Assembly (NCBI GenBank): GCA_051294375.1
Contig: CM119268.1
Span: 7,526,632-7,590,631 of the forward strand
Origin: Paraspadella gotoi
Taxonomy: Eukaryota > Animalia > Chaetognatha
Direction: 5' to 3'
Length of the DNA: 64,000 nt
Shown one piece after another: positions 93 through 33,560 of this stretch (its first letter is position 1; each line of letters begins with the position of its first letter). A model generated the notes under the pieces. That model did not search any database and was not told the origin of the DNA. It saw only the letters and a list, made by a program, of their open reading frames with translations. A program made the translations under genes and the position numbers.

Positions 93-120
93 TTAATAAT
101 AATAATAAAAATAATAATAA
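43..120. repeat. (ATA)n trinucleotide microsatellite
   Basis: Visible ataataata... run; it explains the spurious poly-Ile ORF at 21-410. Confidence 0.9.
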
Positions 121-178
121 ACAACCTTTACACCTCCGATTCCACCTCCCCCCCAAACCCCACCCCCTTATCCTCCTT

Positions 179-2267
179 TCATTTCATAAAGAAAGACTTG
201 AAGGATTCCTTCACGTTATCGATCCCGTGCTGCGTCAGCACCTCCCCGCTGCTCCGCCGACTCCGCGCCGTCGTACAGTTGCATGTGAGATCGTGCTCCA
301 GCACGATTTGCTGGAGTTTTCGCTTCTCCGCCTCGAGATTCTTCACCAGATTGAGCTTCTCCTCGTATTCCTTCTCCAGCCTGTCGCAGCGGGCCTCCAG
401 CGAGACCTGATGCGCCTGCTTCCGCTGTCGGCAGCGGTTGGCGGCGATGCGGTTCTTCTCGCGTCGATTCTTCAGCTCCGAGTCGTCGATCTCGGATTCG
501 GACTTGGAGTGTTGACGCTTTAGAGGCCTTTGGGGAGGGGGGGGGTGAAGAGTGGCAGGAATGGGTGGATGGAGGAAGTAAAATGGTTACTGCTTAGTAG
601 TAGTAAAACTTCGTTGACAAGAGTTTTCAGTATCCGTCAATCACTCTTTGTTAATCGGTTTTTATCGACGCAGTATAGGTTTTTGGTCGCTGTACGGCTT
701 ATATATCGCGAGTACTCGCGGAGCAACTTTATAAGTCACTTTTCGGTCGGTCTGTCGGTCGGTCTGTCCCACTTACGTGAAAAACGCTTGAAATTTGCAT
801 ATATTTGTTTGTTCATTTGTTAAGTCAGGAAAAAACATCAAATCTAAGTGACTGCTAGCGCCGCCTTCAGGAAATCCTAAAAGTATAAAAAACAAAAGAC
901 GGAATTCCGATGCAGTGCTTGTCATGAATACACAGGCTAAAAAAGTTATTGTCGTTATTTAGACATGTCATGTCACATAATGTCATGTCACGTGTTAAGG
1001 CAGTCACTGCGGCGCATTTGAATTACCGTTCTTGTTATATTTAATATTTTTTTTTAATTCTCTAAATTAATTTTTATTAAATTAAATACAAAACTAAGAA
1101 AGAATTTTAATAATTTTTACATAACAATTTTTAAAAATTATTTTTAAATTTTTTTTTTTTTTTTACCTGGACCTCTTCTCGTCTGAGATGGAAACCGAAG
1201 TCGCCGAACTGAGATTAGTCGAAGGAGTTGAGACGGTCTTGTCTCTCGACGAAGAAGTTGAGGAGAATGTTAGGTAGGAGGAGGAGGAAGAGGAGGAGGA
1301 GGAGGGCGAGAAGATGGAGAGCGATGGAGTCAGAGGTGTAGTGGGAGATCTGGCCGCCAGCTTTTCCCTAAACCGATTAAAAAAATCGATCAAAATGACA
1401 ACCAATCAACAATAAATTGCTCGATCGATCAGTTTGATCAATCAATCAATTACAAAATCCAGAATCAATTCCATCAATATACCTCAACGCCTGTTTGACG
1501 GTCGGCGAAACCGGACTATTAATTTTGCGCGCTTCTTTCATTTTCTCGGCGACGCCGGTTACGTTTCCCTTCGGCCACGCCCCTTTCGGAAGCAGCTCGT
1601 CGAAGCCGACGTCGACGCGATCGACGCGAAGCGTGCCCGGTCGGCGCGGCCGCAAGTCTGGCAGGCTCGAGGGACCTCTGACGGTCTTTTCCAACGTCAC
1701 GGACGGCGCCGCTACTAAGCCCGAGGACGAAGTCGCCTCGAAAGAGGTCTGCGAATCGTCCGATTGGCTCTGCGATTCCAGGGAGAAAAAGGTGAAGTCG
1801 GAAGAGGTCGTCGACGAAGGCAGAGAGTCCAGAATTCTGTCGGGTGGGTCGAAGGTCGTCGCTGCGACGGCGGTCGAGTCAGCGACGGCTACCGAGGCGA
1901 TGTTGACGGAAGGATCGGCGGCGGGAAGAAGCCAACCTCCGTCGGCGAAGGAGGAATAAGCGCCGGGCGTCGACAGAGCCGGCGAGTCGAAGGATGATGT
2001 GGACGAGAGGCTGGAGAAAGAAGACGCGAGGGAAAAGTAGGAGGAGAGAGACGAAGAAGATTCGGCGCCGGAGCGAAATTGAGAATCGAAACCCGGAGAC
2101 GGCGGCGCCTCGAGTAAAAAGGTGTTTATCGTCAGCGCCGCGGAGGCATCAAGCGTAGAGGCGGCGTCGGTTCCGTCGGTGGATGGAATCGCGGCGTCGA
2201 CGACCATCGAGGATATGCGGCGCTGAAAGGATCGGGCCGCGGCGGCGGCGTCGAGGGCGCTCATCAT
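179..2267 (-). CDS. Fos/ATF3/JDP2-family bZIP transcription factor, 3 coding exons (2267-1483, 1367-1167, 527-179)
   Basis: The last exon is not in the ORF track. Read by hand on the minus strand it gives ...ELKNRREKNRIAANRCRQRKQAHQVSLEARCDRLEKEYEEKLNLVKNLEAEKRKLQQIVLEHDLTC...FFMK*, i.e. a basic region, a zipper and the terminal H-x-x-x-C typical of Fos/ATF3. The exon1/2 junction gives SPTVKQALREKLAARS, resembling the ATF3 PFVKEELRFAI motif. Both GT-AG junctions are phase-2 and keep the frame. Confidence 0.82.
707..1033 (+). mobile_element. Dispersed ~320 bp non-autonomous repeat (copy 1), in intron 2 of the bZIP gene
   Basis: Colinear similarity to 35757-36069 (cgcggagcaac...aagtcacttt...gtcggtctgtc...ctagcgccgccttcaggaaatc...gaattaccgttctt). 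It has a short GTCG/GTCT repeat near one end, as in DINE-1/Helentron-associated elements. Confidence 0.7.
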
Positions 2268-2899
2268 CGTTTGATTGTCGTAGTTAATGTTTTTGTTTTT
2301 ATTTATGTTGCGAATGACCAAATTTAGAAAAGAAGATGCGGACCACAAACTTAAATCGGTTCGAAACGAAAAACCGAGTCGAAAATTTGGTGAAGCGATT
2401 CCAAACCTCGTCTGGTTTTTCCAAGAAATATTCAAACTCGACAAAATCGGGTCTGGTCTGTGGAAGGGACGAAGAGAAAACAGTTATTCGATCATTTGAT
2501 TTGTTTTGTTTAACGATAAAAAGTTTCAATGTCAACGTTTTTTTTTCCTCTTCGTAGGCGGGAGTATCGGCCGGTTCGGCGGACGAATTATCGTGCCGGT
2601 TGTTATCGAGATAAACAATAATCGCCCCACCTCCTTCCACAACCCCAACGACCCCTTTTCGCAAAAGCAGCGACGGAAAAAAAAGTTTGCTCCAGATACC
2701 GAAACAGGCGGGTTGCATCCGGGGAAAGAGACGAAAACTCCGTATCAAGGGGGTTAAAGCTAAGGGGAAAGAAAACGTTGGCAACTTGTTCTCTGCCCAC
2801 GTTGAAAAGGGGACTTTACGCTCTCCCTTTTCTCAGTTATCTCGCTCTTCCCCTTCCCACCATTTCTGCCGGGTTTACTTCCTGCTCTTCCATCGGGAA

Positions 2900-3370
2900 T
2901 CCCTTCGTCGTGTTTCCCGAAAAAGAGGCGGAGCTTGTCGACGTCACGGGATCGTACGAGGTTCCTATGTCGTCATTTTTCGCCAATCAGCGTCGAGAAC
3001 GAAGGCTCGTCGGCCGATCTGGTAAGAGCGACGATAATTCGGACGACGCGACCGGTCCAATCGTGGCCTCGCGTGGACGAACTCGTCCAATGGCGTCGCC
3101 GCGATATGACTTCATCCGCGGATTAGAGGAGATTGAGTCACGGGAGTATAAAACCAGACTACGGGAAAAAGGTTTTACTTCAAAGTAGAAAATTGTCCAT
3201 CGAAAGACCAAAAGTTCGCTACGGGCGGTTGATAATTTTAACCAATGTTACTTCGAGCGATGTTTATAAAAAAAATAAACAACACTTTCTAAACATAAAC
3301 AAAAAGCCACCAAAGTAAACAAACAAAACTTCCCGCGTGAGAAGAAAAAAAAAACAAAAGACTATAAAAC
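2900..3370. promoter_or_regulatory. Shared divergent promoter region of the bZIP gene and jun
   Basis: GACGTCA (~2940), CCAAT (~2983), TGACTTCA (3107-3114), a perfect AP-1 site TGAGTCA (3134-3140), and TATAAAA at 3147 and 3363 on the jun strand. Confidence 0.55.
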
Positions 3371-4180
3371 TCTCAACGACGCGAATCTTTTCTTTCAAAA
3401 CCAAAAAAAGCGACATTTTCCGCCGCCGTCGCAATTTTCCACTCGACGAATCTCACTTGCCCCGAAGGAGCCAGGCCCTTCTATCGCGAAAACAGCCAAC
3501 CCTTCCTCCTCCTCCTCCTCCTCCTCCTCCTCCTCACCAACTCTCTTAACTCTTGTGCCAGCGAAAAAGAGAGAGAAGCTAACGCAGACAACACACACAC
3601 ACACTCTCTTTCTCTCTCAAACCTCCCCGTCTCGCTCTCGCTCTCCTCTCTCTCTCTCGCTCGCCCCGAGAGAGAGCCGCACAACCAAATAAGACTCTTC
3701 CTCCCTCTTTGTCTGCCACGGGGCCTCCTCCTCCTGCCACGACAAGCAGGGGCCCATCCCTCGATGAAATAAAGAGAAGTAAAATAAAATACAAGAGAAA
3801 AAAAAGAAGAAAAATTCGTAACTTCCTCGACTCTCCTTGAATGCCTTTTACTCCCCGTCTTCACGAAATACTAAACAATAAATTATAAAAGAAAAAAAAC
3901 TCGCTAATTTCCGTGAACGCCGTCGATTCTCTATAGGAAAAATATATGCGTGCCTCAGCGACGCTTTTTCCTCCCTATTTTTGCGACTAAAACGCCTTAA
4001 AAAAGATACATTAAGAAACAAATCTGCTATATATAACAAACTAAGCATTATATCGAACTCTCCTCGAGCCCGTCTTCAACGGACGGCCTCCTTCATAATC
4101 GCCTTTGAAAAGACTTCGAAGAAAGAAAGACGCCCCTTCCGAATCTTCCTCCTCCTTCAACCCCCCAACCGCCCGTCACA

Positions 4181-5485
4181 ATGATGGAAACGATCAATTC
4201 GCCGACGGTTTTCGAGCCGAGCTTCCGGTCCTCATCCTCTGACGTCTCCCGCCTCAAAAACTCGATGAAATTGGACTTTAGCCCCGCGGCCGCATCGACA
4301 AGCAAGACGAAGAAGGCGGCGCAGGCCAACTGTGCTGCGCTGCTGGCCTCGCCCGACTTGGCGATGCTGAAGATGGCTTCGCCCGAGCTGGAGAAGATGA
4401 TCATGGCGCAGCAGCAGAACTTCTCTGGCTCTGGAACGACGCCGACGCCCACCCAGTTCATCTTCCCGAAAAACGTGACGGAAGAGCAGGAGCAATACGC
4501 CAAAGGCTTCATCCAGGCGCTGGAGCAACTCCACCGGAACGGACAGATGGCAGCATCGGGCGGCGCGACGGGATCGTCGACGACGCTGGTGACGGTCGTG
4601 GACAGCGCCAAGGCGGGACCTTTGCCCTCGGCCGATTCCGGCTACAACCTGACGACCCTTTCCTCCGCGGGATCCTCCTCCGGCAGCAGCAACAGCAGCG
4701 GTGCCTCCAGCGTCCACTCATTCAACCTCTCGCCGCCCCATCACCTCGCGGCGCCGTCATCCTCCGCGGCGCAGACGCATCCGCAGCAGCACCACTCGCT
4801 CGGACTCCCTCGTCCGGTCGACTTGACTCAGTCGCACGCCTCCGTCCCTCACGTCCAACTCCACGCTGCCGCCGCTCCCGCCGCCACTCTCGTCACCTCC
4901 CTTCCCGGTTCCAATCGATCGTTGCCCGGCTCCATCTACTCTCAGTCGGGCACCAATCACTCTCTGTCCGTCGCCAATCACTCTTTGGCGTCGCAGTTCG
5001 CCGCCTATTCGATTGCGTCCTCAACTCAGCCCGCCGGCGTCGTCGTCGGCGCTCGCCATCCCAACGCCGCCACCGTCGTCGTCGTCAACAACAACAAGAC
5101 GGAACCGACGACGACAGCTTCCATGATTCCGCAGCCGGTCTTCGCTCACGATCGCGTCTTCCAACTCAAGGGCGACCCGGATGTAACCTCCTCCTCCCCT
5201 TGCTCCTCTCCGCCCGTTAGCCCCATCAACATGGAAGCGCAGGAGCGAATCAAGCTGGAGCGGAAGCGGGCGAGGAACCGGCTTGCGGCGACCAAATGCC
5301 GCAAGCGGAAGCTGGACCGGATCGCGCATCTCGAAGGAAGAGTGAGCGACCTAAAAGAAACTAACGTCGACCTGGGCAAAGCGGCTCAGGAGCTTCGGCA
5401 TCAAGTATCAGAACTTAAGAAACAAATCATGCAGCACTGCAAGAGCGGTTGTTCGATGCCCTTCTTCGGCGAGGATTCCTTGTGA
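4181..5485 (+). CDS. jun: Transcription factor Jun (AP-1 subunit), intronless, 434 aa
   Basis: Delta/JNK-docking-like LKNSMKLDF; [21 protein letters not shown] (S63/S73 equivalents); TTPTPTQF; [20 protein letters not shown]; [43 protein letters not shown] followed by a leucine zipper ending MQHCKSGC. Confidence 0.97.
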
Positions 5486-6132
5486 TACTTTCGAAACGGC
5501 GAGTGTCAACGAACGCGGAAAAAATAAACAAACAAACAAACAAAACGCTGGTGTTTCCAAGTTCCGCACCGTCGATCCGAATTTCGAGTTTTATTATCGT
5601 TTGTTTGGAACCTAATTCGTTTGTTCTGTCGAAAGTTTAGAGAAAACATTGATGACGATAAATATATTTTTTATGAATTTACATTGTTGAACTACTACTT
5701 TAAAAAGGTTATCTGAGTATGAAACTAAAGTTACTTTACTTCAATTACATTAATTATTGCGGTGTTTAAAGTTAAACTTTTTTTAAGTTATCGATGTTAA
5801 CTTTGATGAAATTTATTGTAAAGATGACCTTGTGTCTTGTCATAGAAATTTTAACATTTCTCAACTCATTTTTTAAAGAGAACAAAGTTCAAGAAAATGC
5901 AATATTTTTAGTTAACTGTAAATTGTAAAAACTGAAACATTTTTTTAATAAATATTATTAAATTACGAGTGTTTCGACGAATTTTCTTGAAACTTTGTCA
6001 ACAATGTCCACTGTGATTCTAATGAACAGGAAGAGGATGAAAACTCGTATTTTAAGTTCATCAGGATAGTGAAAGGCTTTTTCTTTCTCGCCCTCTTCTT
6101 TCATTTAGTAGCCTTTTCTGGTTCCCATTATT

Positions 6133-6216
6133 TCGACAACATGTCCGCTCATGTCGATAACATGCTCGTTCATGGGAATAACATGTCTCTTCGTGTTGAT
6201 AACATGTTCGTTCATC
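6133..6216. repeat. Degenerate 21-bp tandem repeat, 4 copies, each with AACATG
   Basis: tcgacaacatgtccgctcatg / tcgataacatgctcgttcatg / ggaataacatgtctcttcgtg / ttgataacatgttcgttcatc. Confidence 0.75.
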
Positions 6217-7875
6217 TCTCATTAATTTATTTCGCGTAGTAGTCATTGTTTTTTGTTTTCTTTTATTTTTTTTTTAATTTCGGAAATTCATTTTTTTTAC
6301 ACAACGCGTCTTTTTTCTCCTTTGCCATATTTTTGCTTTCGCTTGTTAAAAACAAACACTTATTGTCAAATAGGTTGGCAATTGTCTAAAAGTTAATTAA
6401 AAAGCCTTATGCGTGTATGCTGAAGCTTCGAAAAGTTAAAGGAAACACTAACTGCTCAATATGAGTGGGCCTTTTTACCACTAATAAGCTATCTTGTCAA
6501 TGGTGTTTCTTTCGTTCCTTTTTTTTTTTCGCTTTCGACAAAGGAAAAAGCACTACGCATTGTAGTTTTTCAGTGCCATTTTCTCACTTATAATTTGTAC
6601 GCAATAAACAAAATTTCATACTTCCACTTCATGATTATTTCTGATCGTTTGGGCCATTGTAAATCTCTTGTTGCAATAAAATAAAAGGTTTTGGTGATAT
6701 TTCTCAAACAGCGAATTACTCATTTACCTTGAAATAGCGAAAGTCAGTCAAGTGCTTAAGAGAAGAACGAGTTAATTGGGAGTCATTGCGTGGATCGTTG
6801 CATGAACGATGAGTCATGCTTGTATTTCCTGTCTTCGAACTAAAAAAACCTTTCTAACGCCGGATGACTCTGACGAATAATCAATTGCCAAATTCAAGAG
6901 TTCAAAGAGTTCATATTAGAAAGTTTGAATTTAAGTTAAAACTATTTTAAAAAGAGGTTTATTTTACATTTATCATATTCTGAGGCTAGTTTTACATGGT
7001 CGGCGATTAAAACAAAAACAATTATTTAGCCGTTACTGTAACATGGCCATTTTATTTAGCGCCAAACTTGTATTCGTAGCAGGAGGAAGAAGTTACAGGA
7101 GAAACTCCCTAATCGCCGCATGCGGGCTTTTCTCTATTTCGATTAAGATTTCTCTGTACTTTTTCTTTTCATCTATTCTGTATTCGTTCTTTTTCGGTAT
7201 GCATAATATTCAACAACCCAGTTCTTGGCCGTTGGAATAATCTCACGCACGCTGGAGGTGTTTTCTTCTTACCTATTTGTCCTGATCTGAATTTACTGGT
7301 TTTAATCCTTCCAAGATATTGGCAGACAAGAAGATTATCTTTGTTCTCTCTCGCTCTATTCCTTTAAAAAAAAGCATAGTTGTCCTTCTTTCTCTCTCTC
7401 TCTCCCTCTCTCCTCCAGTAAGAATCTGGAAAATTTGTCGCATTCTCTTTGGGTTTAAATCAAGAGATTCTGCTTTGGGCGTCAGGAAAGAAGCTTCTTA
7501 TCTCGGCGGGAAGGAAAGGTGGAGGGGCGCCTCACCAAAGATAAGTGTCGGGGATGCGTGTTAAAATACATAATTTGTAGAGAGCCAATCGTTTCAAGGA
7601 CACTGACAGAAAAAAAAACAATTATCGCAGCCCGAAATGTCAAAAGTTTAAAATAGCCTAATTAATGTGATCAATGCTTAGAATAATCATAATAATTAAT
7701 AAGACTAAGTTTATCCGTTTCTTCGAATACTCAAAACAAGGTTGAATCTACTCTGACCTCAAAACGGATTTAATTTTTTTTTCTGGAACGAAAACACTTT
7801 TTCTTTTCAAACGAAAGGTTTTTTCCAAGCCCATTCCATCCTATTTCTAAATCCTATAAATCCATTTTGACAGCC

Positions 7876-7994
<119 letters not shown>

Positions 7995-8196
7995 GTCACT
8001 AGTAGAAGGCTTGGCTCCGACCATTCGAGAAAGCCGCCGAACAGACAGAAGTTCAAGCATAAAAAATTGTCTTTCAGTGTATTTTCAAGCCCAATTACTT
8101 CCGAAATTAGGTTTGAAGAGTTTAATCTTTTTCGTATCATATAAAGACAGGCGCATATTAATACTTGGTTTTTAAAAAAAATATTTTTTACAAAAA

Positions 8197-8227
<31 letters not shown>

Positions 8228-9238
8228 NNNNNNNNNNTTTTATCTCTCTCTTTTATCTTCTATTATTTCATTCTCTCTATCTCTCATACAGGATGCAGGA
8301 TATTTTCAACAACCGGGATCAAGCTTAACCGCAAATATTTTCCTTTAGCCATCTCATGATGCTTTCAAAAATTAGCTCATGCTTTTTACGTATTTATCAT
8401 CAGTCAGAGCATAATAGAATTTACGTTTATAAAACACTGCAGTGTTTAATTAACATAAAATTCAATTTTCACAAGATAGCTTCAAGTCCTCTCGGTCCCT
8501 GTTTATGCCGATTTTCATTTTCATATTGCTTTTGACCCGCATGTTTGGTTCCCACTCCACCAGCAGTTCCCTATCAGAGTTACTCTTGACGAGCTTTTTC
8601 CTACTCCCTTTTCCCATTGATCATTTTGCATATTTACCTGAGGTGTATTTTTTGTATGTGTTTTTGGTAAAATATATTAAAATAAAAAAAAATTGGTGAA
8701 CCAATTTAGTAATTATAATGACAAGATTACGACCTAATGTCAGTGACATTGTCACAACGAGGAACTTAATTATCATTTGTTCTCTGAATCGTTTCCCTTC
8801 ATATTGTAAGAGATGTCGCCCCATCCTCTTCAGTATTAACAAAAGACTCTCGTTGTCTGCACTCTCTCATTTTCCTACCATCGATGCGATCGATTTCTTC
8901 CTCTTCCTTCTCTTTCGCCAGATTTCTCTCCCTCCTCCTCTTCCTCTTCTCCTTCTCTCCGCTTAAATTCCTTCCTCTCCTTCTCCCTCGATTCTCCTTC
9001 TTCTCCTTCCTCCATCGGCCCACGTGTTTCGTCGAAATAAAAGGAAGATTCTCTGAGTCTTATTCTCTTTTTCGCCGCCCGACCACGCCGGTTTCTCCTC
9101 ACACGTGGCGATTGTACCCGCAATCCTGATAAAAATTAGCGACGATAACTCGATATCGTTATTGTTTAGCTCGGACCCGGGATTGGGACATTCTCTTTCT
9201 TCTATTTTTCTCGTGTTAAATGTCCCTTTCCCCTCGCG

Positions 9239-12200
9239 ATGTTGGGCGCGCGCTACATCACGATTGTTTTACCGATGATCGTCGGCGGTATTTTCTTGTG
9301 GTACAAAAGACGGAAAATTGGAAAGAGACGAATGGTCCGTGACGTCGACGACGATGACGCCGCCGTCCTTGACGGGGGCGTCGATCGAGAAATGCCGGAA
9401 GCGACACCGACGGCCACACCGGAAACGGAAAAAACTCAAATAATCGACGAAACAGACGTCGATCTCGGATCGACGCTGATTTGCGTTAGCGTAAAAACCT
9501 CACCGGAAGTGGCGGAGCCGGATGTCGCGGCACTAGATGTCGCGACATCGGCCGACAACGAGAGAGACGATAAAAAGGACGACATCGTCGACGATGACAG
9601 AATCAAGGTAGACTATGACTCTGACGCGGAACTGGAGAGTTTGTCCTCGGTCCCCGTCGCGGATTGGGCCGAGGAGGACGTAAACATCTCCAAAGAGGAT
9701 CTCGACGAAGATCTAAAGACGATGCTGAAGAAGTCGCTGACGCTCAGCGACGAGTCGCCCAACACGCGGCTTAACCGGATTCGAAAGGCGTCGCCGAGGA
9801 GCGGCTCCAGCGACGCCGGATCCGATCACGATTGGCGCCACCGCAGCGGCGACGATCTCGGCTGCCGGCGTCTTCCGCCGGACTCGCTCGCCGCCACGCC
9901 CACCAAAAATGACGCCATCAGCCAGAGTCCGTGGAGTTCGGTACACAACACTCCGGAGAGGAGAACGCCGAATAGAAGGTGGGGAAAACTTTCATGATAA
10001 TTTGAAAAAAAGTGAAATGAATTTGGTAAAAAGAAAAATGGAAAAACGAAAAAGATACTAAGCAAGGAAAAAAAAATAAAAAAGACTTAGGAATTGTTTG
10101 TGCGGCATCAATGACTATAAGAACTTCTTTTCGTTTGAAGTTTTTAAAAATGGTTACTGAGCTTTGTGATTTAATCATTTATTTTATTTTATTTTGTTAT
10201 TGTTATTAGCATTTGTTTCCTTTCTGCACTCCAGTTATGAAATCATACTTTTTACTGATTAAATTAATTAGAAATTAAATATGACAACACCAAAGTAGAC
10301 ACGTGGTTCGTCTTAACCGTCCCTTAAAAGTTAAAATCAAAAGTTTTCTCTGAGACTGATAAGAAGTTCACTTGTTTAATCTCCTGTCAGTTTAAAAGAC
10401 GCGAACTTTTAATTCGGTAAATAATGGTGGCAACGAAATCCGAAAGTCGCTTCCAACCCCCCCCCCCGGGAAATCCGCCAGGTTCTCTTTTACTTTTCGA
10501 TATCTCCGCCGATCAAATCGCCCTTAATAATATCGAGAGCCTCGCACCGAATTTGAAATAATTTATAAAAGTTAAAACTCGGAATCTCTTGTAATCTTAT
10601 CTCCTCTCTGGATTTAAAATCCGAACAATCCCCGACTCTTTCTCTTTTTTAACTCGGACTATTAAAAACTCTTTTTTTTTTCTTTTATTACTAATAAAAA
10701 CGTTAAAACGTCGTTGTTAAAAATCCTCAAACCGTGCATTAAATGCCATGGATTCGTACGCTTCCAGGTATAGGATAATAAAATAGAAGCGACTCGATTT
10801 TTCTCGAGACAGAAACTGTGTTTAAATCGTCATCTTGTTAAACGGGATCCTCGACTGGTAGTCTCGAATAAATATGCCGCCCCCCCCCAAGATTTCCCTA
10901 GCACCAGCTCTAATCTTGCAACGACCCCACCCCTCGTTCCCAGACTCTTGCGGGGGATCGATTCCGACCCCGTCTCTTCGCCCACGACGACGGGATCGGA
11001 GAGGGCGTGTCCCGTCATCTCCTGCGTAGACTCCACGCCCTCATCGATGAGACGCAACGCAAGCGACTGTGACAATTGGCGCGAAAACATGGCTCAGTGG
11101 GATGCGTTAGGACCCAGGTGCATGTCGAGAAAGAATAGAAACAGAAATGGGGAATGGGGAGGTGTCTTGGCATTCATGGACTTGAAAAATGTATTTACAA
11201 CTCCCCTTCTCGCCCTTCATTTTAAAAAAGGTCAATACACAACTCGCCCTCGGACCGCTGCAGTACAACCTCTGGCGACAGCGGACGAGGCGGTTCGGAG
11301 GGCGTGCCCTCGATTTCCGGCCTTCCTGGCGAAATCGTTGTTTACGAATTCGAGTTTCCGTCGGAACTTTGCGGAAGGTGGGTGGATTTTACTAAGATCG
11401 AAATAAAATATTTCTGTAAAATTTTTTTGGCATAATGAGTTGCAATGAACTGATTGAAATGATAATAATGATAATTCAGGAAGGCTGAAGGGGTATGAAT
11501 TTAAGAAATAAGATAATACTGTCACGTGATATGAATAGTAGAATGCAAACAATTATTATCAACAAATTAATATCAAACGACGATAAATGATTATTAATTA
11601 AAGTTTTATTGATCGAGAAATACGCGGAAATAAATATTAAACGGATCCAAATGTTTATCGAAAGTTTGTGTCCAACACTGAGGAGCAATATTAACTTTGA
11701 CCACAATGCTATTAAACAAATAATAATTAACATGGCGATCTTCGACCTTCCAGGGGCCGATTCAATGATTAATCGTATCTTTAAATCTAGATTAACGTAT
11801 CGATTCTTCTCTTCCCAGGTTGATCGGACGCGGAGGCAAGAACCTCCACTTCATGATGCACGAGACGATGACGAGAATCATGTTGCGAAAGCAGCCCTTC
11901 GACGAAACCCATCAGGTCGTCAGCGTCACCGGCCGGCAGGAGGACGTCCAGGTGAGCGTCGACCGATGGGCGGAATGGATGACACTGAGTCTATCGGTTT
12001 CTTTCTTTAAAAATAAATTGTCAGCGTAAATCTGGAAATGATCAAACGCTAGAAAAAAAGTAATTAATAACAACAACCAAAGTTCTGGGTCGATGACCCG
12101 TTTCACTCTTTCTCCTTGACTCTTTCAGTCTTTGTAGGTATTTCTTTTGCGTCTCGACTTTTTAAACGATCAAGTCGAGATTATAAAAAAAATGATAAAA

Positions 12201-13438
12201 CTTTTTTTTCCTGTTTAAATTGGGGCGAGCGATTATGCCTGGCGGGCGTTGGCTTTCATTAAATCAGAGTAATGGGTTTGGGCTTCGTCTTTTGCCAGAT
12301 CGGTTGGCCTTTCTTTCTTTTCTTAACTTACTTTCTTTCTTTCTTTTTTCCTTTCTTCCTTCCTTTCTTTCTTTCTTTCTTTCTTTTTATTTTACTAATT
12401 TTTTTTCTTTTCCATGTTCTTTCCTTCTTCAATTGTATTTTACAGTTTCTCGACAATAACAAGCTTCTTTCTCTTTTCTTTACGCCCACTCAGTCCGTCC
12501 TCCAATTCGTTCGTAGCAAGTTCCCCAAACAGCGGCATCCCGAGGTCGACCTCGGCCCGGTCCAACTTCCTCTGCCCCCGGAGCTGGTGGCGCCGGACCT
12601 CCTTCCCCTCTATCTCCCCGAAGGGGTGCAGGAAGATGTTATCGTTTCGGCTGTTGTGACGGCCGGACAACTCTTCCTGCAGATGCCCAATCACCGCACC
12701 TTTCCTAACCTCCCCCGTCTGGACGCCTGCATGCTGTCCTGCTACTCGCAGCACGGCGCCCCGCCGCTGCCATTGCCCACCAAGCCCGACATCATCTGCG
12801 CGGCGCCACAGTCGGGCGGCTGGTACCGCGCCGCCCTAGTCGAGCTGCTGCCGGCCGAGGATCCCTACGACGACGAAGTCGGTGGCCACGAATTCGACGC
12901 TACCATCCGCTACGTGGACTACGGCGGCTACTCGCAGATACCTATCTCGTCTCTGCGCCAGATCCGGTCGGACTTTGTCTCTCTTCCCTTCCAGGCCGTG
13001 GAGTGTTATTTGGCCAATGTGTGTCCTCCCGACAACTCCTACGTCTTTGCTCCCGAGGGCGCCTACTTCCTCGAGCGGCTCGTCAAGGGCTCGTCGCTGC
13101 GAGCGGAGGTCGTCACCTACGCCGAGGATGGCATCCCCTTCGTGAATTTGTACCGAATCGAGGGGGAAGAGCAGACGCTGATCAATTCGGAACTGGCCGA
13201 GGCAGGAGTCGTAAAGTGGATCGAAGACTTTCACGAATATTACACCGTATCGGAAGTGGAGGCTTTGGAAGCGCCTTCGGAAGGATTCGACGGATGGTTG
13301 GAATCCGCGACTGAGACGCAAGAAGTCGTCGAAGATCGATTCTCTGGGTCGACGACAATGGAGGCGACGGCCACGACCGAGATGGTAGAGGCGACGAGGA
13401 CGGCGACATCTGAAGGAGCTACGACGAGCGATCAGTGA
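9239..13438 (+). CDS. AKAP1: A-kinase anchor protein 1 (AKAP1/spoonbill-like): N-terminal mitochondrial membrane anchor, KH domain, Tudor domain
   Basis: N-terminal YITIVLPMIVGGIFLWYKRRK anchor. The KH domain is spliced across 11377/11819 (VVYEFEFPSELCGRLIGRGGKNLHFMMHETMTRI...VSVTGRQEDVQ). The final exon 12494-13438 encodes a Tudor domain (VIVSAVVTAGQLFLQ...GGWYRA...IRYVDYGGY...LRQIRSDFVSLPFQAVECYLANV). Internal exons at 10.9-11.2 kb were not fully resolved. Confidence 0.9.
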
Positions 13439-15402: not shown

Positions 15403-15636
15403 AGTAGTCTTTTCATACAATTGAAACATTCTTTGAAATATTACACCACTTCATTGATAGGGAAGCCAGGTACTCTGGGAGTGAATAAATAAGACAGTCT
15501 TAATTGAAAGCTTGCTATGTCATTATCTTGTAAGAGTGATGAAGGCCTTAAACCAAAGCCTGTCCAAAGTCAGGGACAAGGTAGCTTATTTATTAAATGA
15601 ATGGATAATTTTTATATTGGTTGTACCAATTTCATA
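15403..15636 (+). mobile_element. Dispersed ~240 bp repeat family (SINE/MITE-like)
   Basis: A similar copy lies at 17234-17487. 3'-end fragments (aaatgaatggataatttttatattggttgtaccaatttcata) lie at ~15121-15185 and ~15288-15331, and a reverse-complement copy at ~37020-37130. Confidence 0.75.
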
Positions 15637-17807: not shown

Positions 17808-17838
<31 letters not shown>

Positions 17839-20800
17839 TAATCTGGCTATCTTTTACTTTCGCCGACCGGGATTTTGCGGTCGGTGATTTGTTTTTCGCT
17901 TCTTATGAGCGACGTATAAAAATCTTTTTGTACAAATATAAAAAAAATAACATTGGTAAGGGTAGAAAAACTTTTTTATTATAAATTTTATTTCGAAAAC
18001 TATATTGGATAAAAATAAGAAATAACCAGCCTAAATCCCTAATTGCCGCTATCCGTTTAAAAATATAACACAGAAATAGCAAAATAAATTCAAAATAAAT
18101 TCAAAATAATTATTCAAACTTGAAAATTTTATTTTTTTTACCAATTACGAAGAACGTATGAAAAATATAATAAAGAAATATCTTTTTTTTCATTAACGAA
18201 AGGAAGAAAGGAAAAACAAAAATATATTACTGCGCAAAAAAAGTGTGTTTTCCTGCGAAAACTGAGACTTGATGCAAGAGGGAAAACAAAAGTCAATGGA
18301 TTAACAAAGGACCGACCGTAGGGCGTAGGTAGCTAAGGTCGCTTGCGGACGTCGCATAGTAAAGTAACCCGTTTTATCTTTAATGGCCGATATACGCGTA
18401 CAATACCGTAATTTCCATTCATTAGCCAAATGTACGATAAAGTTTAAATTTTACTTATTATTAATCTTACGATAAACCGACAATCGAGTTATTTTTGAGA
18501 CGCTAAATCCAACCATCGATTTAATAGCTCGGTGCATAGCTAATAATAACAGCAAATACTTTCCCTTTTCGTGCTACAGTGTTAATGAGAAAAGGTTAAC
18601 TTCGAATAATTCTTAAACGGGCAAGTCGTATTAACTTACATAATCCCAGTCGATTAAACTGAATCTTTTAAAAAAGGACTTAAAAACCTAAACTTCACGC
18701 CCCCTTCGCCCCCCTCCCAAGTACCTGGTCGCAAAATGAGCCGAGCGTCCTCGATTGTACCATGAATGTCTCTCTCACTTTAATCCCTGAAAGGGAAAGC
18801 GACGTCGGTTGTCACCAAAGGCTAAAAAGCGCGTCACGCATGGAGTCACGTGAGTTGCGTGGCTTTTCTCACGCGAAACAATAAATAAAAGAATGAGGAA
18901 CTGCACCACTTCTTGAATGGATTGAAAAGAAGCAAAGTGAATGGGTAAAAGTTGTAGCCGAGATATTTTCTCTTTCTCCTGCACTTTTTTTAAAATCTCC
19001 TCCCGATTGTACTCTTCCATTCTTTTGTGTCGATGGGTACAAAATAGGGGAGATGGCCTCGTTGTGGCAAGGAGAGGAAAGGCGCTAGGGGGGAAATCTG
19101 GTGAGTGGTGAGAGTGAACGGCAGAAAATAACCCTAAAGCGACTCGAAATTAGGGGGAGCAACTCAAGGTTTTGTGGGGGTTAAATAACGAGGTCGCTCC
19201 GAGAGTGTGTCAGAGAGAGAGAGAGAAATTTTTTTATGACATTGACCGAAAAAAAAAGATTTTATCAGTTATTTTTATTTGAGTATCGTCTGAGAAATTT
19301 CTGTTGGATTTTTGTTTCCAACTATTTAGATCCGAGTATTAATCAGTCTAGCTTTTATCGTTTCGTCCTATAGCTCGTTTAAATAAAGGAATGTAAAACA
19401 ATTGTAATTCGTAAATTGAATTTTACTAGAGCCAATTTGCACGACTTTAGAATATTTATACCATAAAAAACGACGATATCAATGATAATATGAAAAATAG
19501 TTTTTTTTTTCCTGGGAATGATATCCTGCTACCCATCACAGGTTTGCGACACGTTTGAGGTCTGTTTCCCAGATTGACAGAAAAAGAGAAAAAAATAGAG
19601 AGAGAGAGAGAAAAAAGAGAGAGAGAGAGAGAGATTAGAAAAGAATAACACGAGAAATAAAAAAGTTAAAAGATAAGAAAGAGATTCATCCAAAATTTCA
19701 GGTTTTGTTCGCTTCGACCACATATCCCTAATATTTGCAAAGGTACAAAGTTTTAAAAACTTACCTAAGGGCAACCAGACGACAAATGTGTGCAGCATCA
19801 TCATCATCATCCCGCCCAGAAAAAAGGGGGAAAATCTGCCGAATATGTTTTCTTTTATATTAGTACGTGATAATTCAATTTGACTTCGTGAAATAATGAA
19901 ACTGTACAATAATGTGCACAAACATGTATGAGATGAAGTCTTTGATCAGAAAATTTTAAGTTCATTTTTACGCGGTTTCGTCACTCAGCAATGGTTATAA
20001 ATTAGTTTTCGCGAGAGCGATTTTACATTATAATCTGAGCGTTACGATAATTACTTCAGAGTTTTAAATTTTTTTTTAACGAGATTATAAAAAAAATCAT
20101 TACACGATTACAAATCGTAGTCAATAAATTTTGATCGTTAAAATTAAAAAGATATATCCGAATAGTTACTACATCAACGGAAAAGATAAAACATTCGATT
20201 ATACGATTCGATCCTATAAATTTGACTTTAGATTTCTGATTGTTTGTTTAGAGGCAGACGAATTAAAAACATAACAAAATGAAGAGGGTCGGGCGGGGCA
20301 TGCATCAAAATTCTAGAAAAAAAAAGAAAATGTAGAATTCTGGAAGGGTGTAATTCTAAAGAATTTTTTAAGAATGTTAATTGTACATACTTGAATGCTT
20401 GCGGGTATAAATGATAGAACAATTTGGAATTTTAGAAAGTTCATCTGGTTAGGTGGGGGAGGGAAAGTGTCGAAAAAAATAATGCAAATCCAGAAATCCG
20501 CTTGAATGTTAAGTAAAAAAAAACGACTAATGTCGTAGCTAATACAAAGTTGAATTCGTGACAAAATGGATATCTATTTTCTACTGTTGAGGTAACGCTT
20601 TTTTCATACGATAAGAAAACTGAAAAAAAAATCAAGCAAAATTTACCCGGGTCGTATTTTATTTTAAAACTTTCCGGAAGCCCGTATCTGGAAAATCGAC
20701 AGCGAGACAACTGGAAAAAAATTGTTTTGATATTTCGTCTCGTTTTTTATAACAAACAAAATAGCAAGTTATAAAAAAAACACGGTAGACTAAAGAATAT

Positions 20801-21924: not shown

Positions 21925-24900
21925 TCAGTCCGTCATGGCGGCCGTGTGTATGGCCGTCGGGGAAACGGCGGGTGGAGGGTTGGCTCCGGCGTCCTCGATC
22001 TCCATCGTGCCGATATTTACGGCCGTGGCGTCGATGGCATCGAAGCGACGAAACGGCAGCGCCGACGACCCACTTCCGGTCTCCTTGGGAGCAGAAGCCG
22101 TTGCGCGGGCCTTGGCCTTACGCTGTTCTCGCTTCCGCTTTCGCTCTTCCAGCGCTAACTGCAAAAGCGCCATTTTGGACTTGGTCCTGAAGTTCTCCTG
22201 CGACGTCTGCTGCATGAGCGCCAATTGCTGTGGCGTTGCTGGAGTAGCGGCTGCCGCTGCCGCCTGCCTTGCCGCCTCTCGTTCTCGGCGCGCCAACTCG
22301 CGAGCTTCCCGAGAGTGGCGGTGGTGACGATGATGACGACGATGCGAGGACGACGACGACGACGAGGCGTGGAGGTGCTGTGAAAGGGAGACGGCGGAGG
22401 TGGAGGAGGTGATGCTGTGAACGCGACCGTAGGGGCAATGGCCGACTGTGGCCGAAGCGATGGAGCTGAACTGCGGAGAGGCTTTGAGCAGATCGTTAAG
22501 AATGTGAACGATGGTGTTAATCGAGCGTTTGGGGCGCCCGTCCTTGTCCTGAAGGTCCGGACGAAGTCGGCCTGGAAAAGAAAAATTTAATTATTTACTT
22601 AATTTCAGACACTAATCATTAAGTAATCAATATCGGCACATTTCGGATGAAATGAATAATTTTCGTGAACCTACCTGAAAAGGTTCCGCTGAAGATTCCC
22701 CTTCCGTGGCTGTGCATGCTCTCGATGATAGCGCCGTCGCGTGACTTTCCGTCTTCGCGGTGACGATGACGATGATGTCGGCTTCGCTCCTTGTGGTGAT
22801 GGTGGTGGCCGTGATGGTGGGCTTGTTGGCTAAAAAGTATTAAAGATTTGTTAACATTGTGGTATAATCCTTTCTTTTCGTTGTGTAATAATTATTAGAA
22901 AAGTTTGAAATGAATTTTCAACAACGATTTTATTTGATAAAAACGGACATGTTTCGGCTTAACTACAAGCCTTCATCAGCATTAAAAAAGTTAGTGAATT
23001 TGAAACATGTCCGTTTTTATCAAATAAAATCGTTGTTGAAAATTCATTTCAAACTTTTCTAATAAGATTTGTTAACAAAAAGAATAGAACAGCTCATTGA
23101 GGCTAAATTTAAATTTTATTACAATCAGTTAAGTAATTAAAAAGATGATTTTTTATACTTAAATATTATTAAACAAAAGAAAATCAATTTTTATCAAAAA
23201 ACATCAGAATCATAAACCTGTCTTACTTTATATATTTCAAAAACCTCAAAATAATTATTTATCCAGTATATATTTTTTATATTTTTAATCTACTATAAGG
23301 TATCATTATAAAATATGCAAAGTATTAAAATAAAAAAATAATTTTAAATATATTAGATTACATTCAGCTTTATAATAAAGTACTTCATTTTCAAAAATTA
23401 CAGCTCTTAAATGGATAGCCTAATTTTAATAAAATTTATACCAAACTAATTATTTTTCGATAAACTTTAATTAATTTTAAAATTTTATTTAAAAATTAAA
23501 ATATAAAAAGTAATTTTAAAATTTGCTCATGACTACACTTCTCGCGTCAATAATCACTTTGGAAGACAAGTACCTAGGCAACTGGTTGGAAGACGTAGTG
23601 GTCGTCGCGCTGTTTGCTCCACTGACGAAGGCGGCCTGACTGACGGCGTGCTCCGTCCGCGGCGGAATCGACTGACTGGAAAACTGGGCATTTGACGGCG
23701 TGGCCGGCAGCCCAGCCGCAACCGTCGACTGCGCCTGCGCAGGATCCTGCTGCGACGATTTCGAATAACATTGCGTATAGTCCGACGCCGTAACTTTGGG
23801 CGTCTCGAGAGATGCAGCCGACGAGTCCGCAGGAGCATCTCTCGCCGGCGTTTCCATGGTTCTTCGCCTCTTATCTCGCGCGCTGCGAGCCGCTTCAGGA
23901 GAAGCGAATTCGGTGACTACCTCCACCAAAGGCGCGTGGCGCCGCTGTTGAATCCGCTCGACGACGTCTCGAACAGATCGTGAGGAGGAAGAGGCTGCGG
24001 CGTCGCCGGGCGTCGTCTCCCCATTACCTTGGTCGCCATGGTGATGACGTCGACCCTTGAAAGCTCCCGACGATGTACGCTTAAAGGCGTGATGATGATG
24101 ATGGTGGTGGTGATGGTGATGTTGGGAATGATGCTGAGACGACGACGAACTTGAAGAAGGGTCTGCGAAGCAAGATTGGTGGAAGAATTGCGAGGGGAGG
24201 AAGACTGGAGGAATGACCCCCGAGGATCTGCGAGAGGTTGAACCGGTGGAGGAAGAAGTAGAAGAGGTTGTGGCGGAGGACGTGGAGGAGGATGTGGCGG
24301 AGGATGTGGTGGAGGAAGATGTGGCGGACGAATTTGGAAGGTTTTTGACTGTGGAAGTGGACCACGCATAATGACTGTAAGGGATCGTAAAGTAGTGAGG
24401 AAAGAGGAAGGGATGCGGTGGGTAGTGGTGGTGAGGTTGAGAGTGGTGAGTCTGACCCGTAGACGGCACGACCGGCTGCGGGTGATAAAGCGTCTCTGGA
24501 TTCGACTTGACCGTCGCGGACTCTGTTGGGGATAAGTTGGATTCACCGGAGGAGGAGGGTTTGACCGAAGGGGCCGATGAGAGCGGTGACTCGGTAGAGG
24601 AAGACGAAGACGAGCAATGAAGCGCTTCGACAGAGTCCGGCGTCGGAGAATTAGGTTGGGAAGAGGAGGACGATGAGGAAGGCGCGGCCGCTGCGGCGAC
24701 GTCGGAGGCGGGAGGGGGAATGGTGAACGCTGGATGGTAAATGTGTTGCAAGGAGGAAATCGGGTGAATGGGAAAGTACTGCAGCTGAGGATGAGACGAA
24801 GAGGAAGATGAAGAGTTAGTAAGAGTCGATTGCGGCGGGGGTGCAAAAAAGAAGGGATTTCTTTGAGTCTGGATCGGGATTGAAGAGAAGTCGGAGAGAG

Positions 24901-26497
24901 AGGGAAGCGCGTTGTCGACGGACGCCGCCCCTTGGTGGTTTGAAGGAGCGGAGGACGAGGGCGACGCCGACGAATCTCCAGAGACTAACGATGATGGACC
25001 AGCTGCGATCTCTGCCACAGTCTCCGTAGACTTGGAAGCTGCGGTGGCCGCGTCAACTTCGTTCTCTGCGGATGTGGGCATTGTAGATCGATCGAGAGTT
25101 CGACGGGAGGCTCGGTGGAGGGCGGCATCCAAAAATGGCGACGACAACGATGCCGATGAGGTAGATGCGTTGCCGACTTTGGCGCCCTCTTGCTGCGACG
25201 CCGTCGATGTTTTTGCGCCCGATGTAGACGCGCCGGCCGACGCCGGGTCTTGGTTGACGCCGAGGGAAGAATCGGCGAAGGGGTGAAGAAAAGGCGAGGC
25301 CGACGTCAAGCCGGGCAACAATGGCCACATAGGGCTGAAACGAAAAGAGGAGGAAGAGGAGTGGATGTCAGCAGCGCTGGTACCGTCGAGGTATGGCGTC
25401 AACGCCATCGAGGATCTCGTGGCGTCATTAGGGTCGGGGACCGAGGCGGTCGGTGGCGCAGTAGACGACGCTGCCGCCGAAGCAGCAGCAGCAGCCGCCG
25501 CCGCAGAAGCAGCAGCCGCCGCCGCCGCCGCAGCGCAAGGCTGTGCCGAGCAATTGTTTTTTTGAGTCCGGCTACTCTTGTGCTTTGAACGCGAAGATCG
25601 TTTCGTCACGGAACTGAGTTCGAGTTGGACCAACATCATGTGGTTGCCGATGCGCAGTGCCAGGGTGAGTGGCACTTGTCCCATGAGGAAGCTGTTTATT
25701 TGATCGTCGGAGAGCGTCTCCAGAGCTTGCATAATGCTCTCGGTCGGCGAGGGATGGTGCAGTGCCAAACCGGTTTCCACGTTTGGCACCAGGGTCACCT
25801 TGGCGCCGTCGTACAGTGCTGGGTAGTCGGAAAGGACGCCGGTACTTAATTCTCGCTCCCTGGCTAGCAGGCGGATTCGCTCCTTTGGCAGCTTGAGTCT
25901 CTTGGCGATCTGCCGTTTGAAGTCCTCCACGGTGCTTGATCGGGAGATGGAGATTTCGAACTGACCGCTGGTCGTCGGGCAAACCTTAAGACGGACGAGG
26001 TCCTGCTGCTCTTCGGCCGGCGTCGATGTCGACGCCGAATTTTCCGGCGTTGTTTCCGAGTTCGTAGGACGTCGAGATGACGATCCAGATGGACATGACA
26101 CTTCCGGCGTCGACGAGAGGATTCCGTTGAGCGTCAACGCAGCCGCGGGGGATGCCGTCGTGGTGGCAGTCGGTTGTACGCCCGTCTCACCGCCAAGGCT
26201 GTAGCCGGCCAGGAAAGGGCTGTCTACGACGAGCGGCTCAATGGCGGAGGCGACTTCTATGAGTTTGTCGCCGCGGCCTGGTTCAACACCGTGCGAGGAG
26301 GTGGAGCTCGGTTTTGCCGCCTCTGGCCAACGCGGCGGCGGCAAAGCTCCTGACGCCGATATCGGGGGGACGGGAGGCGCCGACGAAGACGTAGCCGGAC
26401 GATCCACTTCCGAGGTAGTGTCGGAGGAGGAATCCCGAGGATGGAAGGGGATGGAGGAGGAGGAAGAGGAGGGAACGTCTTCCGGTTTTTCGTCCAT
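21925..26497 (-). CDS. MIDN: Midnolin (ubiquitin-like domain, split Catch domain, C-terminal proteasome-binding helix); coding exons 26497-23574, 22829-22675, 22571-21925
   Basis: UBL: [15 protein letters not shown]...[23 protein letters not shown]...[15 protein letters not shown]. Catch1: [42 protein letters not shown]. Catch2 across splice junctions: [52 protein letters not shown]-terminal helix: [31 protein letters not shown]. The junction phases are consistent. Confidence 0.93.
22892..23065. repeat. Perfect 64-bp inverted repeat (22892-22955 / 23002-23065) with a 46-bp spacer
   Basis: ttattagaaaagtttgaaatgaattttcaacaacgattttatttgataaaaacggacatgtttc is mirrored exactly by gaaacatgtccgtttttatcaaataaaatcgttgttgaaaattcatttcaaacttttctaataa. 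Confidence 0.92.
22942..22983 (-). ncRNA. Minimal type I hammerhead ribozyme (Penelope-like-element type)
   Basis: The minus strand reads AAUG-CUGAUGA-A-GGCUU-guaguu-AAGCC-GAAA-CAUG-UC-CGUU. This gives core CUGAUGA and GAAA, stem II GGCUU/AAGCC, a palindromic minimal stem III (ACAUGU), a GUC cleavage triplet and stem I AAUG/CGUU. Confidence 0.8.
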
Positions 26498-26970: not shown

Positions 26971-27034
<64 letters not shown>

Positions 27035-30607: not shown

Positions 30608-33560
30608 ATGTTTATGTGTCGCGTCGAGGAGTTGATGCCGACGGCGGCCAAGGTTTCCCTGGAGATGCCGATGAGAACCGACGTTTCGTCGTGGGCTTGC
30701 CTGCTGGAGGAGTTGGTGGAAGGAGAATCACCTGATGTGCGGTGTCGCCCTTCTCACGAAGACCGACAAATCAACGAAAGACCTCGGCGGAGAAGGGGCA
30801 GCTTACGAGATCTGTTTCGTCTAACTCCGCCTCGCTCTCCGACTGCCGAATCGAGCGGCGTGGTCGTCGGCGGCGGATTGGACGAGGCATTCCAGATTCT
30901 TGACGCTTTGGAGGGTGAGGTTTAATTATTAAATTACAAAAACCTTTTTTGTCAAGGTTAATGTTTTGTTTTTTTTTAGGTCGAAGTAGGAAAGACAGCT
31001 TAGATTCTCTCTACGACCGTAGTCTGCAAGTTGGCCTTACGTGAGTAATGCTTATAATTATCATTAATCTATATTAAGACAATTTTTATATCATTACCAT
31101 ATCTGTTGTTGTACACCATCATCTGATTGTAAGGGATATTGTTTGACTCGATCATCACCTGCTGATACCCAATAAAATAGTAGTTCCCCTTTTGAGCAAA
31201 AGTTATCGGTCTTTCTTAGTTCTTTTTTACTATAAAATTAATATCTCAGACCCTTGCCTTGAATACTCTTCGCTTTTTCGTGAAGTATCATTTGTTATTC
31301 TGCGATGCCATCTTTTATTTCACCCAGGAAATTCGAAGATAAAATGAACATCAACGAGGATCCAATGTGGTTCGACGAGCATCTGGTCCCTCAAGTAAGA
31401 TAATAATATTATTATTATATTACTATTATATTATATTGGTTCTATTATTATATATTATTATATTTGTTGTACCAATTTCACTAATAATGATGTAAGTAAT
31501 ACATAATATAATGATATAAGTACGGTAATAATAACGATATCATCATCGTTGTTATAAATATGTCGTACAATTCAGATCGACAACGATGTAAACTTGGACG
31601 CCAACTGCTTCGAATCACCCGGCGATCTGTGCTCTAACCAGGTACACGAGTGAGCTCAGAAATAACTTTTCGCTAAAAAATAATTTGATTCAAGAAATAA
31701 AAACATTTGTCTTTGTAGGACACAACATCGGACGACATTTTGTCGCTATTCCCATACCCGCTGAGCATTTCCATAAGTCAACCATCAATTCCGATCCAAG
31801 ACGATGACTCCGTAACAGGATCTAGTGAAAGATGTCACACGCCTTTCGCTTCGATCTTGCGACCCGAATGCGGTTCTTCCGACCCTAAAATCTTATCCGC
31901 GGGCGAGAGCGACTTAGCCAAAGAAGACGAGCCTTCTCTCGACCATGACGGACTAGATATGTCGGTGGTGTTCCTTCGAGTAGCCAGTGGCGTCGAATCC
32001 AGCCTGACGGAACAACTTCCAGCAACGGACGCCAGGACGCAGGTGTCACGCTCAGACACGTCTTCGTCGCCGGCAAGCGAATCCCCACCCTCAAAACTCC
32101 ATCTGTCTGGCACGACTACCAAAACGACCAAGATCTCGACCGATGCCCGTCGAAGATCGCGGACGAACTCTTCGACTTTTGCCCGCAGCCGACGAAGGCG
32201 GCGAGCCTCGATCACCCTCGTCAAGCCCAAGATCTTCCGTCGTGGCGCCGGAAAAACCGGCAAGTCTCCAACGAGAACGTTTTTCTCCGGCGCCGGCAAG
32301 AACGGCCATTTCGCCAAAAGGAGGAGGAAAGAATCGGAGTCGAAGAGTCCGACGAACACGTTGCCCGTCGATCATCAGGTTAACGAGGGGGTTACCGGTT
32401 AGGGCGTGGCTGGGTATGGAAATTGGATTTTACATTTGGGGATTATCTATAATTTAATTCGCCTTCCATCTGCCGTAAACTAGGTAAGTTGAGCTACTCA
32501 ATTTCTTCAGTGCGTTTTTTTTTTTTATTACGTCATATAAAAATTTTCTTTGTTTGAATTTCTATCGAGTTGTTTGACAGCATTTTTGGAACGCGTCCTA
32601 TCATTAGTGGTTAGGTTAAGAAGAACTAGTGGAACTTTAAAAATAGAATTAAAGCGAATGTCATTGAGGGAAAAACTAAAAGCCAATTATAGCTCTGCGC
32701 CCAAACATTTATTTACTAAATGTATGTAAGCCTTTTTACATCTCTCCTATAACCACGGACCTTTTTTGTATTCAGTAACAATAGTTGATCCGACTGAGGC
32801 CAAGCTACCTCGACTCTCTCTCTCTCTCTTTTCCCCCCAGTTTCCTTCAGATTTTATCTAAGAATTCGAAAAAAAGCAGTGTTATCAGTAATCACGATAG
32901 TAACCCCGTGAATGCCTGAAAAGACTAATTAATAGTCAAATTATAAATCTGTTCTGTAGAGCTTGTGCAAGTTCGTCGGTGAACCTGGGTCAAAGCCAAA
33001 ACATCCTCAGCGGTCTTTAACATTTAAAAGCCTCGATCACGTGGAATTTCCGGAGGTGAGATTGGATGTCATATGCTGGTTCTAAACCAGCCAAACGTAT
33101 ATAACCCCCTGTCCATTGCCCTGTAGAAGCACGTAACATCTGCTTCGAAGACGGCGAAGGGACGCGCCCATCTCAACATCATCGAGAGGCAAAGGAGATT
33201 AGTTTTAGCCCAAGCGATGGAGCGGTTGAGGGAAGAGCTGCCTATGGAAACGGTAAGACAAATACGCAACTTTTCACTATGGCTAATAGTATAATAGTAT
33301 GGCTATTATGGCCAACGCTTCAGTTAAAAATGTTCCCCGTTCTATCTTTTAAGGCTTCCGAGGAGGAAAGGAAGAAACTGTCCAAACTAGAGATTTTGCG
33401 CGGAGCCACGGAGTTCGTGCTTCGTCTGCGAGACGAGGAGAGCGCTCTGGTGGAGGAAAAGAAAAAGCTGAGAGAAGAACAGAAACAATTGGCCAAACGG
33501 CTGAACTTATTAAAGCATAAAAACGGAATGGCGAGAAACAGATTCGCGAGAATCGTGTGA
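30608..33560 (+). CDS. myc: Myc-family bHLH-leucine zipper transcription factor (divergent), 8 coding exons: 30608-30914, 30980-31040, 31328-31394, 31576-31641, 31719-32378, 32960-33055, 33127-33252, 33354-33560
   Basis: All seven GT-AG junctions keep the frame. MBI-like DLFRLTPPRSP, MBII-like INEDPMWF, MBIIIa-like ILSLFPYPL. C-terminal GRAHLNIIERQRRLVLAQAMERLREELP...KKLSKLEILRGATEFVLRLRDEESALVEEKKKLREEQKQLAKRLNLLK. Confidence 0.8.

Follow-up and report, generated by a model that had tools for sequence, protein, structure and literature searches.

A 33.4-kb block of immediate-early-type genes in the chaetognath Paraspadella gotoi, arranged as two head-to-head pairs

We analyzed a 64-kb stretch of DNA from the chaetognath Paraspadella gotoi (assembly GCA_051294375.1, contig CM119268.1, positions 7,526,632 to 7,590,631 of the forward strand), called the window here. 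A 33.4-kb block in this window contains, in order, a Fos/ATF3-type bZIP gene (minus strand), jun (plus), an AKAP1-like gene (plus), midnolin (minus), and a Myc-like gene (plus). The bZIP gene and jun form one head-to-head pair with start codons 1.9 kb apart, and midnolin and the Myc-like gene form a second with start codons 4.1 kb apart. Judged from their vertebrate orthologues, four of these genes are likely to be of the stimulus-response type; the fifth member, the AKAP1-like gene, is not an immediate-early gene. Our tentative reading, to which we give a rough probability of 0.45, is that an old linkage group was tightened in this lineage and is held together by shared regulation through AP-1 sites and cyclic AMP response elements (CREs), a co-regulation that we infer. 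An initial annotation of this DNA gave the same order and strands of the five genes and the same two divergent pairs. It also described four of the first five genes as immediate-early genes; the four identities hold, and "first five" merely reflects where the window starts. The features of the block are as follows.

179-2267, minus strand: bZIP gene of the Fos/ATF3 family; predicted splicing of three coding exons, 2267-1483, 1367-1167, and 527-179
3057-3153, plus strand: likely jun proximal promoter; CCAAT boxes at 3057 and 3087, TGACTTCA at 3107, AP-1 site at 3134, TATA box at 3147
4181-5485, plus strand: jun; single coding exon, 434 amino acids
8228-8237, no strand: scaffold gap of 10 N directly after a TC microsatellite; the sole link between the two pairs
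9239-13438, plus strand: AKAP1/spoonbill-like gene; hydrophobic N-terminus, KH, Tudor; between the pairs and convergent with midnolin
21925-26497, minus strand: midnolin; 3 coding exons (26497-23574, 22829-22675, 22571-21925), 1241 amino acids
26498-30607, no strand: midnolin-myc interval; five AP-1/CRE-like sites, at 27787, 27848, 29459, 29750, and 29791
30608-33560, plus strand: divergent Myc-like bHLH-zipper gene; 8 coding exons, 529 amino acids
30608-30914, 30980-31040, 31328-31394, and 31576-31641, plus strand: Myc-like coding exons 1-4
31719-32378, 32960-33055, 33127-33252, and 33354-33560, plus strand: Myc-like coding exons 5-8

All three spliced gene models (bZIP, midnolin, and Myc-like) have GT-AG introns and open frames. 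The identity of jun is secure on its predicted domains. The protein scored above the Pfam cut-offs for both Jun (102.6 bits) and bZIP_1 (57.4 bits), and its named database matches were Jun/AP-1. In a tree of 45 rows it fell in a long-branched clade of four rows together with three metagenome proteins. The identity of midnolin, for which a word search returned 3 matches and HMMER 408 at an E value of 0.001 or better, is likewise secure by sequence comparison. Its modules are all present and in order, namely Ubl, Catch1, a linker of ~700 amino acids, Catch2, and the C-terminal helix. Ubl and Catch1 matched human midnolin with an E value of 3e-31 and Catch2 with 3e-5, and the C-terminal helix was aligned by a hidden Markov model of 20 relatives. 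A tree of 29 rows placed the protein among protostomes (support 99/98), outside the arthropod and mollusc clades, and we take the source to be a spiralian with a compact genome. The linker between Catch1 and Catch2 (23574-25600) is rich in Ser, Ala, and His and has short aromatic motifs that on visual inspection are also present in a relative's protein, P0123; this protein is 96% identical over Catch1 and then has a similarly long low-complexity stretch. A 74-base inverted repeat was seen in midnolin intron 1 (22892-23065).

The bZIP gene encodes a predicted protein of 444 amino acids in 3 exons with a long Ser-rich N-terminus. It matched Pfam bZIP_1 above the cut-off, and the top four of its 8 PDB matches were c-Fos/FosB, with c-Fos as a fifth. 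Atlas rows for it were generic bZIP clusters only, and exon 1 ends in a short motif that presumably resembles ATF3/JDP2. Of the five zipper leucines and the terminal His of Fos, the protein retains all but the third leucine, with which a Lys is aligned. On these matches, the predicted protein is a member of the FOS-ATF3 family. A 135-base dispersed repeat in the second intron of this gene (747-881) has a copy with 86% identity at 35793-35927. The split within the FOS-ATF3 family has been dated to the bilaterian stem (PMC4736632; statements from papers cited by PMC number refer to those parts of each that were covered here).

By sequence, the Myc-like assignment is the weakest of the gene identities. 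The predicted protein ends in a bHLH-leucine zipper of the Myc/Max group. Both halves of the bHLH matched Pfam HLH below the cut-off (E values of 0.003 and 0.001), the best PDB matches of the last exon were Myc (E value of 0.017), and the PDB matches of exon 7 were Myc or Max chains in 14 of 14 cases (E values of 0.2-2.6). Look-alikes of Myc boxes I, II, IIIa, and IIIb occur in this order at residues ~73, 134, 178, and 247, by patterns that are degenerate. There was no match to Pfam Myc_N at E values up to 1 for exons 1, 3, and 5 taken singly, and neither exon 1 nor the beginning of exon 5 had a Myc match in PDB. A homologue search with this protein scored 0 of 210 candidates, and its Atlas rows were generic HLH clusters. 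In the basic region (33127-33252) Leu takes the place of the His that contacts the E-box, and the Glu and Arg are kept. No differing letter was found at this Leu codon in the four runs aligned, so the Leu is not an assembly error, and it may alter DNA-binding specificity. The gene has an intron within the bHLH; vertebrate myc genes have two coding exons.

The Myc-like gene is transcribed and spliced. Run X9, which was taken as RNA by guess and in which spliced joints were seen, contains GT..AG joints for introns 5-7 that skip 581, 71, and 101 bases as modelled, and a loose end in X9 coincides with the end of exon 4, at intron 4. These joints were absent from all three DNA runs checked. A minor X9 contig keeps part of intron 5.

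To judge the age of the linkage, we compared gene positions in other genomes. The mollusc comparison covered the four species with both jun and midnolin records (17 midnolin clusters were named of ~100, and the lists compared contained no jun record for a further 12 named species with midnolin). In three of the four, jun and midnolin are on contigs of identical, chromosome-scale length: Babylonia areolata (65,222,639, with a further jun on a different contig), Crassostrea virginica (48,412,105), and Argopecten irradians (48,145,685). The two genes of Lymnaea stagnalis are on separate scaffolds (0.63 and 1.98 Mb). On oyster NC_035781.1, jun is at 8.58 Mb and a Myc-A-like gene at 42.14 Mb, which is 33.6 Mb and 2,216 genes apart (PMC8917759 supplement). 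By a constant offset, one of the two oyster midnolin accessions appears to fall in the number range of the jun chromosome and the other in that of another chromosome. Differences in RefSeq XP numbers (586-1107 between jun and midnolin) were tried as a measure of distance and rejected, because the numbers are not positional within the oyster chromosome. In the fly, Atf3 (chrX:1.27 Mb) and stx, the midnolin orthologue (chrX:10.74 Mb), are 9.5 Mb apart on one chromosome (PMC5987561 supplement). Because subsets of the genes share a chromosome in molluscs and the fly, these data support an old, chromosome-scale linkage of gene subsets.

Adjacency of the genes was not kept in any other genome tested, and this window is so far the only place where they are tightly clustered. 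A scan of metagenomes found 80 jun loci, most of them short, and the 13 that were longer than 5.6 kb represent about four jun types. None of these 13 had a second bZIP or midnolin within flanks of up to 10 kb, with the limits that only 8 of the 13 had more than 3 kb upstream and that larger genomes could hide a neighbor beyond 10 kb. The viral and prokaryote contigs scanned with jun and midnolin alignments gave no locus, and the supplements of PMC9977687 and PMC5550008 contained no match to the terms sought. The annotation knew of no such cluster, and no description of one was found in the literature either, with few subscription papers covered. None of these genes is mentioned in the main text of Irimia et al. 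(2012; PMC3514665), and the pair list in its supplement may bear on novelty.

The grouping of four immediate-early-type genes is improbable under random gene order. With 15,000 genes in random order, runs in which at least four of five neighbors come from one class are expected 8e-6 times per genome for a class of 50 genes, 2e-3 times for 200 genes, and 0.09 times for 500. If 15 members of the class are placed on one chromosome of 1000 genes, the expectation is 2e-4 or less. A chance origin of the grouping is therefore disfavoured.

The AP-1/CRE motifs differ between the two shared intervals. The initial annotation placed such motifs in both, and this holds above chance for the midnolin-myc interval but not for the bZIP-jun interval. 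In the midnolin-myc interval we found five sites where shuffles gave 0.68 (p of 0.0002), and 103 overlapping windows of the same size elsewhere had at most four. By contrast, the bZIP-jun interval has one AP-1 site where 0.23 are expected (p of 0.2) and no full CRE. This site is 13 bases before the TATA box and follows two CCAAT boxes. It reads as part of a predicted autoregulatory promoter of jun rather than as a shared element. The cassette of an AP-1 site followed by a TATA box is the only one in the window, and 5 of 5000 shuffles contain one.

The initial annotation further proposed that midnolin degrades the products of its neighbors. Human MIDN mRNA is induced with kinetics like those of immediate-early genes, and c-Fos and FosB are midnolin targets (Gu et al., 2023; PMC10617673). 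The substrate list of that paper (Data S4) includes FOS, FOSB, ATF3, and BATF2. The same paper states that c-Myc is apparently not a substrate, and JUN is without mention in its text. Data S4 has no row for JUN or MYC; EGR1 is missing too, so absence from this list is not proof. Neither Jun nor Myc is named as a midnolin substrate in the parts of PMC12088389 and PMC11852108 covered. Because c-Myc is a reported non-substrate and Jun is off the substrate list, the proposal fits the Fos/ATF3-type neighbor only. A complex prediction without alignments for three midnolin Catch pieces and the first exon of the bZIP gene gave no answer (score of 0.03).

In the mechanism that we propose, the four genes would have started out on one old chromosome and moved close to each other in this lineage, and their adjacency would have been kept by regulation driven by shared AP-1/CRE sites. 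The AP-1 site next to the jun TATA box and the AP-1/CRE sites of the midnolin-myc interval would mediate the response to a stimulus, and they would in turn be the targets of feedback by Jun together with its Fos/ATF3-type neighbor. Midnolin, induced along with the others, would then degrade the Fos/ATF3-type protein independently of ubiquitin, in the way that human midnolin acts on proteins of the Fos family, and other routes would dispose of Jun and Myc. Since midnolin would act on the Fos/ATF3 type only, this loop is narrower than the one first proposed.

Several points weigh against a tightened and co-regulated linkage group. CRE-like words are common throughout the window (15 where 6 are expected), and because of this the five sites of the midnolin-myc interval compare with 1.5 expected at the window's own rate, for a local p of only 0.01-0.02. 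The CRE-like pattern was also defined after the sequence was read. Record 7 of X9 implies 1,840 bases of exon 1 and leader, which would make at least 1.5 kb of the midnolin-myc interval myc leader, so three of the five sites probably belong to the leader or to an intron within it. As for the chance estimate, the gene class was defined only once the genes had been seen, and the scan took in very many windows. Conserved residues are changed in both the bZIP and the Myc-like protein, which may be diverged paralogues. Fly jun (Jra) is on 2R, apart from stx, and in fly tumour discs Jra (+0.71) and Atf3 (+1.68) changed in the opposite direction from stx (-0.68; all log2; PMC5987561 supplement). The disc data describe a chronic state in another animal, yet they speak against obligatory co-induction.

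It is also conceivable, although we think it rather unlikely, that the block is a neutral neighborhood, in which shuffling within the old linkage group and compaction brought the genes together, each keeps its own promoter, and adjacency is without function. The distances of tens of Mb in oyster (33.6 Mb) and of 9.5 Mb in the fly, the separate scaffolds in Lymnaea, and the 13 longer jun loci with neither a second bZIP nor midnolin in their flanks are all as expected from this, as is the position of AKAP1 between the pairs. If three genes are counted instead of four, 0.34 runs per genome would be expected for a class of 200 genes. However, four of five is rare for any reasonable class size, and the motif peak is located in the midnolin-myc interval, neither of which is readily explained by neutral shuffling.

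We regard as improbable that the block is a relic of a group already close together in the ancestor of protostomes or of bilaterians, which was retained here but scattered along the chromosome in most other lineages. The linkage of different subsets in distant groups is compatible with such a history, since jun is with midnolin in three molluscs, jun with myc in oyster, and Atf3 with midnolin in the fly. Human JUNB, JUND, and MIDN are presumably all on 19p13, and we take fly Myc and spoon to be on X, for which positions were sought and not found. Tight linkage, however, occurs in no second genome, and a long-branched lineage with an intron-rich myc does not suggest a conservative genome. One shared chromosome is weak evidence in oyster, which we take to have few chromosomes and several myc genes, and vertebrate MYC and FOS/ATF3 paralogues are presumably in other paralogons than JUN. 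It is similarly doubtful that an ancestral animal cluster of immediate-early genes joined AP-1, Myc, and a midnolin off-switch for Fos/ATF3 proteins under shared AP-1/CRE enhancers, with this block as a fragment that has survived; the same slight likelihood attaches to the idea that the linkage on one chromosome in molluscs and flies is what is left of that cluster.

Each head-to-head pair is internally free of gaps, and words of window positions 1-10000 are present at 75-98% in eight DNA runs from five samples (four of the runs are the possible source sample), which shows presence and not contiguity. A mis-join at the 10-N gap that made one locus of a separate bZIP-jun pair and a separate AKAP1-midnolin-myc block would fit the microsatellite immediately before the gap and the lack of any aligned read or contig that bridges it, but is very unlikely because jun and midnolin share a chromosome in three of four molluscs, which a random mis-join would seldom reproduce, and no gap lies inside either pair.

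Known gene groups resemble the tightened linkage group that we favor in some respects. In the vertebrate FOS-JDP2-BATF and ATF3-BATF3 arrays, AP-1-type genes are side by side as tandem duplicates within one family; in the window, by contrast, four unrelated families are grouped and the bZIP gene is partnered by jun. The deuterostome pharyngeal cluster combines unrelated regulators with a bystander gene, is conserved across phyla, and patterns tissues. The chaetognath block similarly has unrelated regulators and a bystander (AKAP1) in one short block, but it is known from one genome and concerns the stimulus response. Ancestral microsyntenic pairs such as Hspe1-Hspd1 (PMC3514665) are also head-to-head and functionally related with short intergenic DNA, but they are defined by a cross-phylum conservation that was not found here. 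In the midnolin-proteasome pathway (PMC10617673; fly Stuxnet), the Ubl, Catch1, Catch2, and C-terminal helix are as in the window, which also has a Fos/ATF3-family gene nearby. In contrast to that pathway, the Catch1-Catch2 linker is ~700 amino acids here and 111 in human (PMC10617673), and the covered parts of its literature describe no genomic clustering with substrates and give c-Myc as a non-substrate.

The remainder of the window contains other features. The name AKAP1/spoonbill for the gene at 9239-13438 is our assumption from its domain order. Between it and midnolin (13.4-21.9 kb), no further coding gene was seen by eye. This stretch has an 87-base repeat family with four copies within 15101-17489 and a GC-richer island (18700-19200) with an E-box at 18847 that is a possible distal element. 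A scan with Rfam gave no match at the gathering score; a weak match to SNORD91 at 13995-14085 (33 bits, with a gathering score of 51) is probably due to chance. Adjoining myc is a chitin-binding (peritrophin-A, CBM_14) gene with small exons (34900-37700, plus strand). A RhoGAP gene (minus) and a granulin gene (plus) at 38995-47517 form a further head-to-head pair, so this arrangement is common in the window. A local duplication spans 50060-53030, where frames 50060-50401 and 50821-51156 resemble 52033-52353 and 52705-53028, respectively. A gap of 25 N at 54701-54725 is followed by an aldehyde dehydrogenase gene (55000-56440, minus strand), presumably of the succinate-semialdehyde type. Two adjacent Ala/Glu-rich genes (57647-61270, minus strand), the first with an EF-hand pair, have similar N-termini starting Met-Gly-Asn, which are possible lipid anchors, and are probably tandem paralogues. 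Of 32 two-kb bins, 31 have an observed/expected CpG ratio of at least ~1 (0.88-1.73 over the bins); CpG is thus not depleted, which suggests little or no CpG methylation.

Immediate-early genes are usually viewed as scattered genes with a common promoter logic. A cluster of four families would offer one 34-kb locus at which to ask whether linkage aids fast co-induction, and whether midnolin fed back on Fos/ATF3 proteins before vertebrates arose. Because of the same-chromosome signal in molluscs and the fly, the age of the linkage is directly testable on public chromosome-scale genomes.

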